Shown piece by piece: positions 1-10,717 of a DNA stretch of 64,000 nucleotides (position 1 is the first letter of the stretch; each line of letters starts with the position of its first letter). This stretch comes from Prorocentrum cordatum (Eukaryota). Both the position numbers and the translations under genes were made by a program. Location of the stretch: contig CAUYUJ010000002.1 of NCBI GenBank assembly GCA_963575745.1, positions 496,001 through 560,000 of the forward strand, written 5' to 3'. The notes beneath the pieces were generated by a model. The model was not told the origin of the DNA. It made no database searches and was given only the letters and a program-made list of their open reading frames with translations.

Positions 1-659
1 GCCCTGCCTTCAGTAGTGCGGTCAAGTTTTCGAAACCCACGGAGCCCCCCTCCCCGAGGATTTTCAGCCAGCCCGGTTCGATATTCATACGGATGGTTCT
101 GGAGGTTCCCGCTCCAAGGACGCAGGTGGACCACCGTCTGGGGCATGGGTTTTATTTTCAGTTACACGTAACGAATACCATGCAATCCATGGGTACATAT
201 GCGAACTAGATCCTACTCGTTCCGGCGCAGTTGCCAGTATACATGGTAGTCGCGTCATCAGCAGATGCACGTGGCATGGGTTGCGTGGCTCTGCGGGTGC
301 ATGGTCGGCATGAGCACGCGCGTGGGCACGTACTTGCACGACAGCATATACGTGTTATCAACTATTCGGCACGACACCTACTGGTGGCGATCTGCGCGCC
401 GCACCTGTGCGTTGATGTGCTTGATGCAGCGCGCTCACGACGAACACTAGACGAGATCCACTCATGGCGGGGTGAAATCGAGAGGGGCGTCCGTCAGCGA
501 GCCCAGCCAGCCCCCCGATGCTGTCTCTTGGATGCAACCGCGTCAGTGGGCTCACCAGTTTCAGAGCACGTTGGCGATGTTGCTGCCGAGCCCGAGACCC
601 CAGCAGGTCAGAGATTGCACGGCTTCTTCCGGAGCACCGAACAGTGCGCGCAAACGACG

Positions 660-860
660 TTCTTGCCGTCCACTGCTGGGGTCCACGGTACATGGCTGGC
701 TCCAAATCAACAAGGACTTGATCCTCATCACCGCATAGACTACACCTCGATGCCAGCAGGGCAGCTCGATGCCGTTGCGCAGCAGAGCGCTGCGGTAGAC
801 ATGGATTTGTCTTTACGCTCAGACGACCACTTCGTGGTCACGGCGCATGCAATCATCCCT
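660..860 (+). pseudogene. APE-type endonuclease C-terminal fragment
   Basis: ORF 231..1244 contains HGTWLAP...HRIDY...LRSDDHFVV, matching the TW / RIDY / SDH motifs of LINE APE domains. Confidence 0.7.
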
Positions 861-1939
861 GGGATGGCGCGCAGTACGAACGTGCACACACATTCGACAA
901 AGCTTAAGCTCGATGAGGCCAAGCTCGTCGACCCCACCCGCCAGGGGGGCTTCTGTGGATGCCCTACGGGTGGTGCCCCAACCCCATTTCACCACCCATC
1001 CCGACGAACGCGCAGAGCATCTCAATGCTCATCTCCTGCAGGCGGCCAAGTGCGCCCTCCCGCCGGCCGAGTCTGCCAGCGGTCGCACGTCGCGAAACAC
1101 TTGGATTGCCCGGGGATCCCTGGACCTCATGGACGACGGCGCCACGGGACGCTGGGCCCTACGGGTTCTCCGATCGCTGGCACTACGGTTGCTATTGGTA
1201 TGCGTCTTCGCGGCTTGGGCCTCGGATGGGGACTTGGAAGGTGAATCCTATTATTATCGTACATGGCGTTGACGACGCGCGTGCCGCAACGGTCCTATAC
1301 ATTTCCCCATCCAACAGGCATGTCGACAGAAGATAGCAACAGTGGCTGGTTAACTAATGGGCTCCGCACTACCGTTCGCGCGTCCGCTACAGACCCCCAT
1401 CTAATAGGACTACGTTTCCTAAGCCGACCTCCGACTGCCTGGGAGCTGGGGATGGCACCATTCGGTTACCTTTTTTGTTTGCCTACGATTCTGGAGCACT
1501 ACCATGCGTGGAGGGTTGTTTCTCTGGGCATGGCGTTTTCCCGAGAGCCGCGACCTATGTTGCGCAGCAATCCATGGGGCAAGATTCGGCGTGGCACTGT
1601 GCCAGCGTTTCCAAGGGAGTTAACTCAGCCTGGGACCGACGACATTTTGCAGAAGCCCACGCCACTTTGCGCCGGATCGGTGCAGGATTTACACGACGCA
1701 TGACGCGCGCTCTCCCTGCCCTGCGAGATGTCAGCGGCCAGGCCTTGGTCTCTGAACAGGCTGTGGCACAGCGGTGGCGACGCCATTCTGCCGACCTGGA
1801 GCTCGCCGCTACAATGCCCATGGACGATATTCCACACGTTGCTGCGTACTTCGGCCGACAGCCCTGCCAGGGCATGCACAGCCAGCCAGTGCAGTTGTCC
1901 TCTGCGCCCTCTCTTGCTGACTTTCAGTGGTCCTGCCGA

Positions 1940-3100
1940 CAGGCCCGACGGTCCGCTCCTGGGTGCGATGGGATCCCTGGCCGCCTCCTAAAAACACGTC
2001 CAGCAGCGATTGCCGACTTGCGCTACCCACTACACTTGAAGTTCGTATTTACACTTATGGAACCAATTCAATGGAAAGGCGGATTCTATCGGGACCCAAT
2101 CAAGTCTAGTCTTGCCCACCCTACCCAGTGCACCAGCTCTCGCTCGTTTCTGGCATCGTCTCAGTTAGGCGAAGCGCCCCGACGTTGTATACGCGAACGG
2201 TTGATACCCTTCCTGCCAGACGAAGCAGGCGAAACTCAGTTTAGAGGACTCCCTGGACGAGGTACAGCACATGCCTCCATCCTCCTGCGCACGGCCCAGT
2301 CCCTGGCCAAGAAGCGCAACGTGTCTTTCAAGGTACTTTTTCCTGGACGTCGTACAGGCCTTTTACAGGGCCATACGGGAACTAGTGGTCAAGGCACATC
2401 GGGAGTCGGAGATGGGCGATGCTACTATAGCCACAATAGTACGGGCTGCAGGGCTCCCGCCCGACGCCATGCACCGACATGCCGGCCGACTCCGCTCCCG
2501 GACCCCGTCTCTCACCCGCTCCGACCTCGACCCGCGCGTCGTCGCCCAGGTCGAGCAGTGCTACTTAGCACCATGGTTCGTATATGAGGTTTCTGGCCAG
2601 GTGTCGATGCCCCAACGTTCGTTTCCCCCAGGCCAACCTCGCGGACGTTCTCTTCGAGCTACAGATGGCGGATTGCATGAGCGAAGTCCGGCGACAATTC
2701 TGCGACGACGGCCGCCGCGCACCCTTGTCCTGCCCTGCGGGGCGCAGTCTTGCAGCGCGCCTGTCAGACGAAGGAGGGGCAGAGGTATCACTTGCAGATA
2801 TTTCGCACGCAGACGATGGCACAGTCATCCTGCTCATGCCCGCGCCTTTTTTTGCGCGAACGGCTCAGCAGAGCCCTGGTTTTAGTATCCGAAGCTTTCG
2901 CCACCAGGGGACATCTACTTAACCTTGGGCTTGCCAAACCAGCGGCGCTCATCGCGCGGCGTGGTCCAGGGGCCAATGCAGCGCGTCACTCGGCGCGGCT
3001 CGAACAGGGAGGCAACACCGTGGGCGAGTCAGCTATCGTTGGGGCGATCGAGGCACCCATCGTGCACAACTACATTCATGTGGGTTCAGTTTTCGACGCA
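1940..3100 (+). pseudogene. Reverse transcriptase domain (frameshifted)
   Basis: Motifs are spread over ORFs 1475, 2271, 2584 and 2750: APGCDG, QF.G..GRG, LD...AF, ISHADD and YIHVGS. Confidence 0.88.
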
Positions 3101-4449
3101 GGTGCGGCGATGACGCCAGAGATTCGATATTGGGTCGCCTCCTCTGCTGTCTCCCTCCAAGTGCTACGACGACGAGTTTTTGCGACCGGCGACGTCGGTC
3201 TCTCATGCCGTCTTATTATTGCAAACAGCTTTGTGATGTCCAGCCGACTGTGCAATGGTGGTGCATGGCCCGCCTTTGCAGTGTCAGACGAGCGTCTTGC
3301 GCGCGTGGAGGTCATGAAAGTTCATCGTGCAGCTGCGCGCGCCAGTTACCGTGAGGACACATCCCAGGTCTCCGACGCATTGGTTCTTGTTAGACTCCGA
3401 CGGCCCGACCCAGCTACACGGATTCGAGCGGCCCACTTAAGGTTCCTGGGGTCCCTGGTCCACACAGGCCCTCGGCTGGCCCTCGCAGTGATTGCAGCAG
3501 GATGGAAAACCCTCGAACACGACGCGGTACGCCAACAGCGAGCCGTCATGGGAGTCTGGACTACGGACCTACAGTGGCTGCAGGAATCTGCGCGACGTTG
3601 TGCAGACCTCCCCGACCTTGCCGCCAATTTCGGTGCATGGGAGACGTTCATACAACGCAGCGAACCAGCTTGGAAACGGGCTTTTCAGATAGGAGTCTAC
3701 GCACATACACAGCATGCGGCACGACTCACAGTTGCCCAGCGCGTGGAGCGACAGTTCTTTGCTGACGCGACCGCTGCGGGTGCACCGGCCGGGGTCTACA
3801 CCGACGCGCAGGGCATGGTCGTCCCGCCACCGCCAGCGCCCGTGCCCGCCACGCGCGCCTGCCCCTGGTGCGAGCTACAGTGCCAGCGCCACCGCGCACT
3901 ACGCGTTCACATCGCACACAACCACCGCCAACTTACTACACTGGCGCGAGGATGCGCATCACTGACAGGCACCTGCACGGCATGCCTGCATACCTACTAC
4001 GCCCGACCCCACCTCATCGATCACCTATCGATCGATTCACCACGATGCTTGCTCGTAGGCATACTAGCAAACGATAACCCAGCCTACCACATCAAGCGGC
4101 CCATCGACCCCACTCCACGACCACCTGGCACCTGGCCGCAGGTCCACATTCCTCGACGTCATGTTGTTGTGCCCACACTACGTGCCCAAGGCCCCCGCCC
4201 CGAAGTAGCCAGCACGATAGCCGACACCGTCACGCAAGCAGCAGCCCGACTAGCCCTCCTCGAATGCGCTCCGTATCTCGCCGAAGCCGCCAAGGACGCC
4301 CAACGGCCGCTGCTTCGCCTAGATGCTCCACCACAGCTCCCAGACATCGCATGCCCACCACCACATATCGAGCGCTACCCCACCCGCATGTTCCTGACAA
4401 GTCAGCACGCAGGCACGGCCGCGCAGATGCTTCCGATCGCCATCAAGCG

Positions 4450-5220
4450 GGCTGAGTACTTCGCACTCAACCTCCACTGCGGACGCCGACGGGCAGGCGA
4501 CATTCAAGCATGCCTCGAACGGACGCACTACGATGTTAATTTCACCCTGGTTGTACTATCGATCGACATCGCCATTGATCCCGCGATGGGCAACATGATG
4601 CGACGACAGACGCTGGAGACGTGGAAGGAGCACAGACGCGCTATGCGAGTTGTCCTGTCGGGGGGGGGGGGCGCCCTGCGAAACCTGGAGTGCCATTCGT
4701 TGGGCCGACGATGCCGGCGCCCTCTACGTTCGCGCGACCGCGTCTGGGGGCCCAAGGCAGTTGCGCCGCGCCAAATGGAACAACTACGCGTTGGAAACGA
4801 GCTCTTGGGGGCAAAGACCGAACTGTTTGGGGTCCACCTTGTCGTTGGGGCGGCCTGCTGGATGGAGCATCCCACGCCGGCTTATTGGAGAAGCCGCGGT
4901 GAGTTTTTTCTTTGCCCCATCCCCGCGAGCCGCGATGGCAGCACCAGCGGCCGCGGTTGCAGATTTTGATCAGTGCGAGCACGAACAGAGCGCGCGCGCC
5001 CACCCGTATGCTCGCGTTGCGTGCGCGCGCATTACACGAGCGCCTACTCGAGACACCTCGGAGAGGACGCTGCTCGCACGGGCGTTGATCGCACGAGGTC
5101 TTGATGGGCTACGATCGCAGTCGCGACGACTTGCGTGCCGCCAGAAAGAAGACGTACCCACCAGCTCTCTGTCAGGTACTAGCGGATGGCATCATGGACT
5201 CTGTAAACCACATGCGTGAG
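4450..5220 (+). pseudogene. C5 cytosine DNA methyltransferase-like domain fused to LINE ORF2 (frameshifted)
   Basis: Motif I-like LNLHCGRRRAGD (about 4463-4501), motif II-like LSIDI, catalytic motif IV GAPCETWS (after the poly-G slip at about 4660-4671), motif VI-like MEHP (about 4862-4873), FDQC and a terminal KTYPPALCQVLA. Confidence 0.75.
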
Positions 5221-5904
5221 ACCAGCGACCCAGACGCATTACCAGGCGACATGCGGGAAACAAAAAATCGAGCTTCCTGGGTCCTTGTCCGATTTTTTTC
5301 ATGACATGGGACCCCTATCAGGGCGCGGGCGAAAGTTGGGCCCCTGATTTCGCCTCGCAGGCCCCTCGGCGGGCCCGTGCAGACCACAGGAGGCATAGGT
5401 TTCAGCCGCCGTCCCCCCCCCCCCCTCCTGCGCCAGGTGTCGCTGTGATCCGGGGCGGGGCCCAGGGACCCAAGCCCTATGAGGCCACAGACGAGCAGGA
5501 GCACGCAGAAGCGTTGGCGTTTATCGAAGGCACCCCGATCCATGGGCGCGACGCCGGTTGCCCTTTTCAAGTCAGCGCAGCCCTTGCCCACGCCCCGCCT
5601 CTACCACCCTGCCCAATTCCCTTCGCAGATGCAGTTTTAGCCGCGATTGCCCGCGAGCGCTCTGAAGCCCGCGCGCGGCGAAAGCAGAGACTTGCCGCCC
5701 GTGTCGCCCCTTGGGCCATGCACTCGGGATTCGGTGCCAACCTTTCCGATTCCCACCGCGAGTAAACCGCTTTCTGTCTATCGTGGTTTGTATGGGGGGG
5801 GGTCGGGGGGCAGGCAGGTTGGTAAGACTGCGACAGTGACACAGGCGATTTGTGGTTTCGCGCGACAGCGGTCTCGTCCTGCGCAGCTGAAGCATGCTCA
5901 GCCG

Positions 5905-6555
5905 TCGTCGGCCGAGCCGAGGGTCGATCCGCGAGGGGGGGGCGCAGTGGGCGCTCCGAGAGGAACTCGCGAAGCCCCACCGAAGCGAGGTCGCCGTTTT
6001 GCACCTGCGCTCTCTCGAGCACGCCGCAGGCGTCGATTGGCGACGTTGGACGGGCGGCGGATGCGTTAGTTTTCAGTTCGGGCGGGGGGGCAGCCAGTCA
6101 CGATTGTTCGAGCTGTGGCTCGCGTGCACGCGCAGCGCGCTACCTTCGCGCCGTCAGTTACTTGATGAAGCCTTTCCCTTGGATTGGGCGGGGAGGATGG
6201 GTGGGGTCTGTAGTCTGTGAGAGTAGCTGCCTGACTTCCACGGTCTCTCGTGCCCGCAGCCTGCCTGCATGCGCCGCCATCCCTGTCTCTCAGCACATTA
6301 CATTATCTTCGTTGTCTTTTGAATGTTGGCAAGGGGTATCGGATATCAGGATGCCGCGAGGGACAGGCCCGGCATGTTTGTGCAGTGGACTTCTCTTGCG
6401 CAGCTGACGGCCGCTTTGGCGTCGGCGGCCGAGCCGAGGGCCGATCCGCGAGGGGAGGGGGCTATAGTGGGCGCTCCGAAAGGAACTCGCGAAGCCCCCT
6501 CCCCAAAGCGGCTCTCGCCGAGGGAAGGCCGCCATTTCTACGCCTGCGCTTTTCG
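5905..6555. repeat. Two diverged direct copies of a ~120-bp unit (about 5905-6020 and 6421-6555)
   Basis: Both copies read cggccgagccgaggg(t/c)cgatccgcgagggg...agtgggcgctccga.aggaactcgcgaagcccc. Confidence 0.8.
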
Positions 6556-7925
6556 TGAGCTCGCGGTCGTCTTGGAAGGGGGTGGAGGCGGGGTAGTCAG
6601 TTACTGTCTGTCAAGCTGAGGCCCGCGTGCAGCGGTGCGCGCGTCATTTTTGCATTGTCAGCTCGCGAGGCACTCAAGTCTTTGAGACGCAATGCCGGCC
6701 TGCCGCGTGAGTTCGCAGATGCTTTTGCACGACTGGCTTCCTTTGGACAAGCACCCGCCGTGGATGACGAAGGGCGCCCGTTTTCACACTTACAGCTTAG
6801 ACACGTGGACCCCGTTCTCGCGGCGATGGCCACGCGCCAGCGCCGAAGTATCAGTGACGTTCGGGCAGAGGGGAGTGCTTCAGAGAGAGTTGCCGCCTGC
6901 CTCTGTTGCTTTCTCCCGCCCGCGGCCTGCCTGCACCGCCGCGCGCTTTCCTTTTCTTGCTGTCAACGCCCCCAGAGGCGCCTCCCCCCCGCTTCGAAGC
7001 TGCGGACATAGTTTCACACCTTGGCCCGAGGGGGGCAGCGGTCAGGGGGCCCCGTGAGCGTAGTCCGTCGCTAACCACACACTCGTTGCGCGTGGCGCCG
7101 GACCCCCGAGAGCTCGCCTGCGCTGCGCAGCGGCTCACCAGGAGCTCACGCACTGCTCGCTGCGGCGCTAGCCAGGCTGCATTGCATTTTGCATATGCAG
7201 TTATGGGGTAGCAGGGCAAGGATCGAGGTTGGAAGAAGGTTGAATTGTCATGAAATATTTTCCCACCTTTTGTCCCTCTCTGCGCGACGAGGCGCATTGC
7301 TTTGGCGCAGACAGGACCGCCTGCCTGCCTGTCGTGCCTGTCTGCTACCGCCTGAAGTGCCAGTAGCGCTGACCACGGCTCTAGTGCCTCTGAGCTTGTG
7401 TAGTGTCACTTCGAGCGCCGTGCAGGGTGCCTGACACTATATATGTGGAGGGGTGGGTGGGCATACTTTGGGTGGTGGGGAGGAGCTACTGCGCTGTACT
7501 TGCTTAGTTGGTGCCCGCGCAGCTCTTTTAAGTTCAGTTGTACGTCTCTTAGTTGCAGCGCCGCCTGCCTCTGACCGTCGCCAGGCGAATCAGATGCGCA
7601 ATCCAAAGAATCTCCTCCGTCTTCCCCCTGCTCCCCCTCCCTCCCCCTCCCGCCTCCTCCTCCCTTCCCCCCCCCGTCCGCCGATGCGCCGAGCCCCGCG
7701 CGCCCGCGCCCTCGGCGCCCTTGGCGCCCTCGGCGCGCTGGCGGGCCCGCTGGCCGCCCGCCGCCCCGCGGCCCTCGCCGCGGCGCCCCGCGGCCGCCGA
7801 CCGCCGACTGCTGCCGCCAACCGACGAGGTCGATGACGACGACCGAATATGGCGACGACGAGGACGGCGACGACGACGAGGTCGACGACGACGGATGACC
7901 GACGACGACGACGCCGACGACGATA

Positions 7926-7963
<38 letters not shown>

Positions 7964-8607
7964 GACCGTGGCCGTGGTCGTGGTCGTTGCCTTGGTGTTG
8001 GTCGTCGTCGTCGTCGTTGTGGCCGTCGTCGTCGTGGTGGCCGTCGTGGTAGGCTCCGTTGCGCCCGCCGCCGCCGGCCGCCGACGACGACGGCGGCTTC
8101 CGTTTCGCAGCCTCGTGGGCGGCCCCGGGAGCCCGCTCGCCGCGCCACTGCCAGACGCCACCCGGCAAAATGTGCCTGCTGCGGCGGACCTCGAGAGGGG
8201 TCGGGGGGCAAAGTTTGAGCGGGCCGTGGGACCCGCCGCCGCTGGCGCTGTTGTCGTGCTCGTCGTCGTGGTCGTCTGGGTGGTCGTCGCGGTCGTCGCT
8301 GGTGGAGGGAGAGGGGGGAGGAGGAACGAGAGAGGGAAGAGGGCAGAAGGGACAGGCAGAGAGGGGAAAAGGCAGATGGGGAGAGGGAGTGAGGGGTGCG
8401 GGGGGCGGGGAGAGGGAGGATCTGGGAGAGGGACAAGCTAGGTGCCCCCGCGCCTCATCTGACATCCGACCCCTCCCTCCCATCCGACACCTGCGACCCC
8501 CGTGCCTTCGTCCGAGCACGCACGGCCTCGTGCTTCTTGCGCCCGCCCGCCCGCGGAGCCGGGAGCGGAGACGACGTCCCAGCATCGAGCCCAGCACAAG
8601 GCAACAG

Positions 8608-9128
<521 letters not shown>

Positions 9129-9449
9129 CCTGCGCGAGCCACAGAGCAAGGCCACAGGGCCCCGGGGCCACAGGGCCAGCATCGAGCCCAGCACAAGGCC
9201 ACAGGGCCACAGGGCCAGCACAAGCCCACAGGCCCCGACCTCTTGCCGCGGCCGTCGGCCCGCCCGCCCGCCCCACTGCGAGGCGCCCGCGGCCCTCGCC
9301 GCGGCGCCCGCGGCCCGCGGCCTTCGCCGTGGCGCTGGCCGCGGACGACCGCCCCCCGCGCGGCCTCCGCGGCGGACGGCGGCTCGCGCGGCATCCGGCG
9401 GTCGCGGCGGCGGGCGAGAGGAAGGCGCCCCGCCGCCGCGAGCGGTAAG

Positions 9450-9482
<33 letters not shown>

Positions 9483-10717
9483 TACGGTGACGACGACGAC
9501 GACGACCACGTCGACGACGACTACGACGACGACGACTACGACTACGATGACGACGACAGCGACCACGACCACGACGACGACCACGACGACGGTGACGACG
9601 ACAAACTCGACGACCGTGACAAAGACGACGACGACGACGATCACGATGACGACGATGACGACGAAGACAACGACCACGTCGACGACGACGTTGATGACGA
9701 CCTCGTCCGCGCGGTTGACGACGACGGCAACTTCGATTTCGACTTCGACGACGGCGACGACGACCGCGACACGACGACGACAACGACAACGTCGAGGAAG
9801 GCGGCCCGCCGCCCCTGCCGCTGCGGCCCGAACAGGGGCGTCGATGTTGACGACGGCAACGACGACGGCGCCGTCGCCGGCGGTGGCGGTGACGGCGGTG
9901 ACGACGCGGGTGACGTCCGACGACGACCGTGACAAAGACGACGACGACGTGCACGACGACGACGATGACATTGACGACGACAACGACAACGAGTACGACG
10001 ACGACGGCATTCAGGGAAGCGTCGTTGTGCAGGACGCCGGCGGCGAGGGTGACGACGGTGACGACGACGACGACGGCGTCGACGGCGGCGGCGGCGGTGT
10101 CGACGTGGGCGACGTGGGTGACGTACGACGACGACGTGGGCGACGACGACGACATTGACGACATAAACTACGTACGACGAAGACGTGGGCGGCGGCGACG
10201 TACGACGCTGACGACATTGACGACGCGGGCGACGACGACGACAACGACAAAGACAAAGACAACAACAACGGCAAAGAAAACGACTACGACGACAATTTCG
10301 ACGAAAACGACGACACGACTGCGACGACGAAGACGTTAAGGAAGACGCTCAGCGGCCGCCTCCGCTGCGGCTCGGACAGGGGCGTGGATGCTGACAACGA
10401 CGACGGCGACGGCGGCGACAGTGACGGCGGTGATGACGTTGACGACGTTGATGATGCACGGCGGCGGCGACGACGGCGACGACGACGGCGACAACGTTGG
10501 CAGCGGCCTCCGTGGCTGACGGCGGTGACGGCGTGGGCGGCGTGGGCGACGACCGTGACGACGGTGACGGCGACAGCGACGACGACGTACGTTGGCGACA
10601 ACGAAGTTGATGCAGGCGCCGCCTGCCGCTGCGGCCCCGACAGGGGCGTCGACGTTGACGACGACGGCGGCGACATGGTGACCGCGGTGACGACGTGGGT
10701 GACGTACGACGACGTGC

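Follow-up and report, generated by a model that had tools for sequence, protein, structure and literature searches.

The window analyzed here is a 64,000-nucleotide (nt) stretch of the Prorocentrum cordatum contig CAUYUJ010000002.1 (positions 496,001 to 560,000, forward strand; all coordinates below are those of the window). Near its 5′ end, at approximately 447 to 5765 on the plus strand, lies a dead copy of an apurinic/apyrimidinic endonuclease (APE)-type long interspersed nuclear element (LINE) retrotransposon. The 3′ ~5.3 kb of the element is retained, and its start probably lies 5′ of the window edge. Downstream of its reverse transcriptase (RT) and two zinc fingers the element carries a domain, here designated X, that has the predicted fold of a C5 cytosine methyltransferase (C5-MTase). 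Judged from predicted models, X is a genuine cargo domain with a methyltransferase fold; the LINE that bears it does not fit the published description of LINEs with a DNA methyltransferase (DNMT). The window copy itself is only a relic; the interest lies in the large, conserved, and unannotated family to which its X domain belongs.

Domain X occupies 4445..5223 on the plus strand and is interrupted there by four frameshifts and a TGA codon. It was delimited with a hidden Markov model (HMM) of the X family in three reading frames and with the intact relative P0001, and its fold is taken from models of the relatives P0002 and P0007. The first-pass annotation had listed six motif peptides, and all are present at 4466-5172 on the plus strand, downstream of the RT and the C2H2 fingers in one decayed frame. 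The motif I equivalent, LNLHCGRRRAGD, comprises strand β-1 and its loop (4466..4501, frame 2; family consensus LHLFSGxRRxGD) and is followed by LSIDI (4556-4570, frame 2). The motif IV equivalent, GAPCETWS, contains the Pro-Cys pair, has the family consensus GPPCETWS, and lies at 4668..4691 in frame 3, directly after a 12-G run where the frame slips. MEHP, the motif VI equivalent, is at the end of strand β-5 (4862..4873, frame 2), and its E-H-P residues are invariant or ≥90% conserved in the family. FDQC (4965..4976, frame 3) starts the region equivalent to motif VIII, FDQCxxGxxxxKPTxLL, and KTYPPALC (5149..5172, frame 1), at the position of motif X, precedes the last long helix. This series of six motifs is far beyond chance because the window pieces are collinear with both P0001 and the X family HMM. 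P0001, which is 1152 aa long, is 59% identical over the queried stretch (E 2.2e-57), and the HMM scores 120 bits at nt 4445-4897, 21.7 at nt 4659-4775, 6.6 at nt 4893-4997, and 55.7 at nt 4987-5223.

Five frameshifts and one TGA interrupt the frame between 4445 and 5765. Aligned to P0001, the coding path runs in frame 2 to the 12-G run at 4660-4671, in frame 3 to ~4720, in frame 2 to ~4895, in frame 3 to ~4990, in frame 1 to ~5290 (with the in-frame TGA at 5086-5088), and then in frame 3 to the element stop codon at 5763-5765. The fifth frameshift, at ~5290-5300, lies inside a T run of the conserved tail of the element. With these frameshifts and the stop, the window copy is dead and unable to make the protein; the first-pass annotation had likewise taken it to be decayed. 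Three of the four frameshift positions given there (~4665, ~4715, and ~4900) are near those found; the fourth, 5100, is wrong, and the actual site is ~4990.

The remaining parts of the element are all on the plus strand. The C-terminal half of an APE-type endonuclease and the linker that follows it lie at 447..953 and were recognized by tblastn with intact relatives. This piece matches residues 2072-2231 of the open reading frame (ORF) of the metagenome locus L031 (tblastn, E 2.7e-4), overlapping the L031 Exo_endo_phos match at residues 1947-2182, and it is also matched by residues 274-433 of P0039 (tblastn, E 1.4e-5); by itself the piece has no Pfam match. The RT remnant, at 1589..3253, was located by tblastn with P0038, P0036, P0039, and P0001 and has frameshifts near 2340, 2640, and 2848. 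Two C2H2-type zinc fingers, CPWC...HIAHNH and then CTAC...HLIDH, follow at 3857..4050, the end of the second having been placed by eye. The first finger matches Pfam Zn_SUZ12 (E 8.5e-5) at nt ~3857-3931, which are residues 393-417 of the ORF at 2681-4969. Downstream of X, a conserved C-terminal tail, WDPY...APDF..., occupies 5304..5765 and ends with the element stop codon (ORF 5220-5765; tblastn to P0001 residues 998-1148). There is a single copy of the element within the window (tblastn).

Just 3′ of the element stop, at 5826-6558, are two similar stretches ~450-480 nt apart (...GRAEGRSARGG.SGRSERNSRSP...). They are absent from the Tandem Repeats Finder output and could be a repeat of the 3′ untranslated region or a duplicated flank.

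The family of LINEs that carry X

X domains are numerous. With the 453-aa P0002 as phmmer query, 2640 of 1.84 billion cluster representatives are matched at E≤1e-3, and 1087 of these at E≤1e-10. X is ~260 aa long and is usually at the extreme C-terminus of proteins of 1000-3800 aa. The architecture of these proteins in Pfam terms is RVT_1, then C2H2 fingers, then X, which has no Pfam family. Pfam identifies RVT_1 at E≤1e-3 in 13 of 18 long relatives, and P0001 has zf-C2H2 matches. In A3, a profile of 18 long members, the Cys and His columns of the fingers are invariant. A3 matches human LINE-1 ORF2p (8sxt, E 1.5e-16) from residue 193, at the endonuclease end, through the RT, and it matches the RTs of R2 elements at E 1e-10 to 1e-13.

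Longer copies are present in metagenomes. Scanned with a pattern, metagenome contigs yielded 601 stretches, 459 of which encode a relative, and 80 loci were kept; the 48 loci examined are those with enough upstream DNA. An open frame of at least 1000 aa continues through X in 35 of the 48, and one of at least 3290 aa in 12, four of them complete from stop to stop and eight running off the start of the locus. Thus other copies retain the domain, as the first-pass annotation had expected of a genuine cargo. Twelve loci, among them L031:566-11173, L047:296-10858, L026:659-11029, and L077:1013-10888, hold intact relatives, each encoded by one open frame with a length of 3,290-3,710 aa. The Pfam order in the long locus ORFs is Exo_endo_phos, then RVT_1, then C2H2. 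The Exo_endo_phos match has E 6.8e-5 in L031 (profile positions 21-214 of 225; 23.2 bits against a cut-off of 24.5) and E 3.6e-4 in L077. Since a LINE-type RT and an endonuclease N-terminal to it are both present, the X-bearing element is an APE-type (L1-like) non-LTR (long terminal repeat) retrotransposon, and its identification as a LINE stands. X itself was considered as the endonuclease of the element, given that it has the position of the restriction-like endonuclease in R2-type elements; this was rejected, as the APE domain lies upstream of the RT.

The first ~1,500-1,900 residues of the relatives, upstream of the endonuclease, are without a Pfam family. In some copies this N-terminal part has an ORF of its own, which abuts the ORF of the RT or overlaps with it. 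Some relatives have an RNase H domain on the N-terminal side of the endonuclease and RT, namely P0036 (the best match, E 1.5e-12), P0038, P0081, L068:255-7013, and L077 (residues 1493-1540). This is an unusual position for RNase H in a LINE. An RNase H-like motif read by eye at 17-313 of the window has no Pfam support there.

Two relatives bear EukProt labels of Symbiodiniaceae, Cladocopium sp. Y103 and Fugacium kawagutii. A further X relative, P0164, is labeled in EukProt as coming from a transcriptome of the green alga Pyramimonas sp.; this could be contamination or could reflect a wider host range.

Predicted fold, conservation, and selection of X

The fold of X was predicted with AlphaFold2 for P0002 and P0007, two members that are 42% identical. 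The predicted local distance difference test score (pLDDT) of the P0002 model is 85-98 over residues 101-365; the P0007 model has a mean pLDDT of 88.4 and a predicted template modeling score (pTM) of 0.88. The models were compared with 48,161 PDB chains by VIA-align, an aligner independent of Foldseek. For both models the chains ranked 1-16 are all C5 cytosine methyltransferases, with 174-220 residues aligned and Z scores of 10.4-8.2 (model 1) and 10.5-8.5 (model 2). These top 16 include DNMT3B/DNMT3A (Z 10.1-10.5), M.HhaI, M.MpeI, DIM2, DNMT5, DNMT1, DNMT2, ZMET2, MET1, and a C5-carboxymethyltransferase. Model 1 aligns with DNMT3B (6u8p) at Z 10.4 with a root-mean-square deviation (rmsd) of 4.3 Å over 200 residues, and with M.HhaI (10mh) at Z 9.8; the corresponding Z scores of model 2 are 10.5 and 10.0. 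Foldseek against the whole PDB gives 25 and 16 matches at E≤1e-3 for the two models (best E 3e-4 and 1.3e-4), and among the matches listed all are C5-MTases for both models.

The conserved motifs fall in order along the predicted structure. X consists of β-1 and the FSGxRRxGD loop; β-2, ending in Asp; GDL; β-4 and GPPCE; a long helix; β-5 and EHP; FDQC..G....KPT on β-7; a short insert containing Cys and His; and K.YP with the last helix. In the P0002 model FSGxRRxGD comes after strand 1, strand 2 terminates in a nearly invariant Asp, GPPCE comes after strand 4 (residues 170-175), EHP ends strand 5 (residues 239-245), KPTxLL is strand 7, and K.YP leads into the last helix. The proposal that the C-terminal domain resembles C5-MTases and keeps their Pro-Cys agrees with the predicted models, and a Glu at the motif VI position is kept as well.

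The best structural matches of X are the catalytic domains of DNMT3A and DNMT3B and the enzyme M.HhaI (4u7t, 6u8p, 10mh), with Z 9.8-10.5 over ~200 residues at an rmsd of 4.1-4.6 Å. They share with X the Pro-Cys after β-4 and, judged by position, the Glu after β-5. X has a short target-recognition insert, and that of DNMT3 is also short. In contrast, their identity to X is 10-16%, and X as read from alignments is without the G-x-G of motif I, the N-V of ENV, QxRxR, and GN. The fold of X is very probably homologous to that of the C5-MTases, although very divergent. This conclusion is held below certainty because the margin over other folds is modest, at ~2 Z, and the TM-scores are low.

The insert between KPTxLL and K.YP (~296-342 in P0002; ~5040-5150 in the window) carries a conserved GRCxH....H. 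Read by eye, this motif and the Cys of FDQC might form a small metal site that replaces a large target-recognition domain.

A number of results weigh against reading X as a C5-transferase. PF00145 has no match at E≤10 in P0001 or P0002, and across 42 X members there are 0 significant matches and three below threshold (best E 0.08). Sequence and profile searches of X against PDB chains give 0 matches. In hhalign comparisons with A2, which was built from nine genuine C5-MTases (Dcm of E. coli and eight of phage origin), only 21 columns of X are aligned (GGPPCETWS / GFPCQxFS), at a probability of 7-12%. A comparison with Dcm alone is likewise confined to motif IV and of low probability, and the NCBIfam model TIGR00675 (dcm) reaches X with E 0.34, on motif IV only. 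Both hhalign and TIGR00675 do put the GPPC of X on the PC motif of the true C5-MTases, but sequence profiles alone do not establish the homology of X to these enzymes. In the ESM Atlas the nearest named cluster of X is PF00145 (score 0.88), which is a lead only. The evidence for the fold consists of predicted models, in which the C5-MTases lead generic Rossmann proteins by ~2 Z (the first non-MTase row is a short-chain dehydrogenase (SDR), at Z 8.0 for model 1 and 8.5 for model 2), and the TM-scores are low (TMq 0.22-0.39). A HMMER search against PF00145 had been set by the first-pass annotation as the test that could refute its proposal; there is no significant match, yet the fold comparison shows a relationship. 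It is only the fold comparison that reveals the relationship of X to the C5-MTases.

The motifs themselves add to these counterpoints, their equivalences being a reading of alignments rather than a superposition of structures. Motif I of X reads L-F-S-G-x-R-R-x-G-D, with both Arg residues invariant in A3, where A2 has an invariant G-x-G-G; X keeps the Phe and the first Gly of F-x-G-x-G and otherwise departs from the cofactor loop. Motif VI reads E-H-P and not ENV; its Glu is invariant, and the equivalence is by position only. The QxRxR of motif VIII in A2 is x-K-P-T in X, and the equivalent of M.HhaI Arg165 would be Thr (alignment by eye). The GN of motif X becomes K-x-Y-P, as judged by eye and from a low-confidence hhalign alignment. 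Nor is there depletion of CpG. The observed/expected (o/e) CpG ratio is 1.03 in the window element and 1.21 in X, and in the metagenome relatives it is 0.61-0.72 in the element ORFs versus 0.56-0.81 in the flanks, with no extra depletion in the ORFs. Therefore the X-bearing LINEs give no sign of self-inflicted CG methylation. For reference, the whole window has a GC content of 60% and a CpG o/e of 0.91; in the metagenome relatives the GC content of the ORFs is ~52%, and that of most flanks is ~40-45%, with one at 53%. The organism behind the window may accordingly be a different one from those behind the metagenome contigs.

The putative functional residues are nevertheless strongly conserved. 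Among members that share 25-40% identity, E-H-P, GPPCE, Arg-Arg, the Asp after β-2, and the KPT Thr each show invariance or at least 90% conservation; GPPCE has also been scored as conserved at ≥75-90%, and the putative catalytic Cys and the Glu at the motif VI position are retained. The ratio of nonsynonymous to synonymous substitution rates (dN/dS) was calculated for the three of seven pairs of metagenome copies with a usable dS. It is 0.048, 0.065, and 0.108 for X in pairs 1, 2, and 3, compared with 0.026, 0.066, and 0.044 for the RT and 0.059, 0.087, and 0.061 for the APE domain. These ratios are approximate, dS being 0.9-1.6 and near saturation. X is under purifying selection as strong as that on the RT and the APE domain, and therefore the element needs X.

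Comparison with known systems

DNMTs carried by transposons were defined by PF00145 in the study of de Mendoza et al. 2018 (PMC5890265), which describes three kinds. SymbioLINE-Dnmt has its DNMT in ORF1, upstream of the ORF that encodes the APE and RT; SymbioDIRS-Dnmt3 has its DNMT within Pol; and Gypsy-Dnmt3 belongs to the charophyte Klebsormidium (PMC5890265). The last is the LTR element with a DNMT that the first-pass annotation had attributed to Symbiodinium, an attribution at odds with that text. Later papers (a 2025 article in MBE and a 2026 bioRxiv preprint) report, in the parts available, the same three kinds together with LTR elements that have adenine and cytosine methyltransferases.

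SymbioLINE-Dnmt, as published, resembles the X-bearing element in being an APE- and RT-encoding LINE with a cytosine-MTase-type domain under purifying selection; it is from Symbiodiniaceae, as are the Cladocopium and Fugacium relatives of the window element. It differs in that its DNMT is PF00145-positive and encoded in ORF1, whereas X is PF00145-negative and C-terminal in the RT ORF, after the C2H2 fingers. Pfam searches of seven complete X-bearing ORFs, and of 19 ORFs located upstream at 15 loci, detect no PF00145 domain. Nor does a local HMM derived from nine prokaryotic and phage C5-MTases, which is less sensitive than Pfam, detect one in the 80 loci and the window, its best E being 1.1. 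The window element had been proposed as a decayed member or relative of the published Symbiodinium system; with a PF00145-negative domain C-terminal to the RT and no PF00145 domain of the ORF1 type detected upstream in the loci searched, its membership there is not supported. X is probably a separate lineage and architecture, set apart from SymbioLINE-Dnmt by the published description of the latter.

In SymbioDIRS-Dnmt3 and KnitGypsy-Dnmt3, according to their published outline, the DNMT domain and the RT share a polyprotein ORF, as X and the RT do. The two are of the DIRS and Gypsy types and carry a genuine member of the Dnmt3 clade, whereas the element described here is a LINE and its domain is far more divergent. 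The phage DNA cytosine C5-carboxymethyltransferase CmoX (8yf3; PMC12783734) is like X in having a C5-MTase fold with altered cofactor-contact residues and is among the top structural matches (Z 8.4-9.2). It differs in its phage origin, its SPPC motif, and the Arg that it has in place of the motif X Asn, and its tie to X is at the level of the fold.

Human LINE-1 ORF2p (8sxt) matches the family profile in the C-terminal part of the APE domain, the linker, and the RT. The C-terminus of L1 ORF2p is formed by a small Cys-rich domain, without the C2H2 fingers and the MTase-fold end, and the X relatives have 1,500-1,900 extra N-terminal residues. No description of a DNMT-like domain at the C-terminus of ORF2 was found in the literature covered, which leaves most subscription journals and Repbase reports outside.

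A retrotransposon that encodes a DNA methyltransferase has, as parasites rarely do, appropriated the silencing chemistry of its host. The known examples were all found by a Pfam DNMT profile, and X represents a second type, in the same algal group, that the profile missed. X-bearing LINEs are abundant, their X domain is selected as strongly as the RT, and it is fused directly behind the RT. The PF00145-based censuses that underlie the counts of eukaryotic and transposon-borne DNMTs would miss X.

Possible activity of X and remaining features of the window

We favor, with moderate confidence, the interpretation that the window element is a dead APE-type LINE from a family whose RT ORF ends in a divergent C5-MTase-fold domain, X, acting as a tethered C5-pyrimidine transferase. 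X would be tethered to the RT during target-primed reverse transcription and would flip out a pyrimidine in the new cDNA or in the target DNA. The conserved Cys of X would attack C6, helped by the conserved Glu, and a group, most simply a methyl from S-adenosylmethionine (SAM), would be moved to C5. New insertions would then bear a host-like mark. The narrower proposal that X is an active DNA cytosine-5 methyltransferase, which is drawn from motifs and models, is possible but somewhat doubtful.

It is unlikely, though worth considering, that X has kept the C5-MTase fold and lost transferase activity, serving as a nucleic-acid-binding and base-flipping pseudo-enzyme that holds template RNA, cDNA, or target DNA. 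Such an X would take the place of the Cys-rich domain at the C-terminus of ORF2 proteins in other LINEs. The C-terminal domain of LINE ORF2 proteins binds nucleic acid, and X occupies its position; in addition, the glycines of the SAM loop are replaced by a nearly invariant Arg-Arg, QxRxR and GN are lost, and X leaves no CpG footprint on its own elements. However, few residues in the family are as well conserved as the GPPCE Cys and the EHP Glu, which is not expected of a mere binding module, and the dN/dS of X is as low as that of the RT. X could instead be a DNMT2-like RNA (cytosine-5) methyltransferase acting on the LINE RNA template or on host RNA, a reading we regard as improbable. DNMT2 and EhMeth are among the top fold matches (Z 8.6-9.3), no CpG depletion signal is seen, and RNA methylation was suggested by de Mendoza et al. 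for a LINE-borne DNMT that failed on DNA in yeast (PMC5890265); but DNMT3A/B and M.HhaI score as high as or above DNMT2, and the sequence does not separate RNA from DNA substrates.

The chemistry may also be of another kind. X could use C5-MTase chemistry with another group or cofactor, as CmoX does, or could act on another pyrimidine in the 5-hydroxymethyluracil-rich DNA of dinoflagellates; we think this very unlikely. The top matches include the C5-carboxymethyltransferase 8yf3 (Z 8.4-9.2), and in X the Arg-Arg pair of the cofactor loop is invariant, as is the Lys of K.YP, which adjoins the position of the motif X Asn. In CmoX the extra carboxyl is bound by an Arg (R350) that stands where M.HhaI has Asn304 of motif X, and the N374K variant of M.MpeI accepts carboxy-SAM (PMC12783734); a high content of 5-hydroxymethyluracil in dinoflagellate DNA is likewise reported (PMC11572971). 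Against this, the argument is drawn purely from motif differences, and the residue equivalences are not by superposition. The least probable of these readings, with a very slight likelihood, is that X is unrelated to the C5-MTases and is a generic Rossmann-type domain (for example a nucleotide-binding one) whose PC and E motifs arose by chance. It is consistent with the lack of a significant sequence-profile link and with SDR-type proteins at Z 7-8.5, only ~2 units under the MTases. But two models and two programs agree, the VIA-align top 16 and the Foldseek rows among the matches listed being all C5-MTases; the sequence-level alignments fall exactly on the PC motif and nowhere else; and the order and spacing of the six motifs fit the predicted strands.

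If X is active, more independent captures of C5-MTase chemistry by retrotransposons would have to be counted, the tally of DNMT-like genes in Symbiodiniaceae would change, and the element would offer a tractable test of the role of a methyltransferase in LINE target-primed reverse transcription. As a pseudo-enzyme or a user of another cofactor, X would be of interest for enzyme evolution. There is a small chance that X is an unrecognized and massively expanded C5-MTase-fold family at the C-termini of dinoflagellate LINE ORF2 proteins, perhaps with a different cofactor or with a nucleic acid modification so far undescribed for eukaryotic mobile elements, to which the invariant Arg-Arg cofactor loop and the Lys at the motif X position may point. 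The inserted copy would then receive a new chemical mark in a process coupled to its reverse transcription.

Elsewhere in the window, an Rfam scan gives 0 matches, and Pfam searches of 16 other long ORFs of the window yield nothing useful. Very long trinucleotide and low-complexity runs occupy 7590-10170, where open frames on both strands consist of runs of His, Asp, Ile, Met, Ser, and Val.

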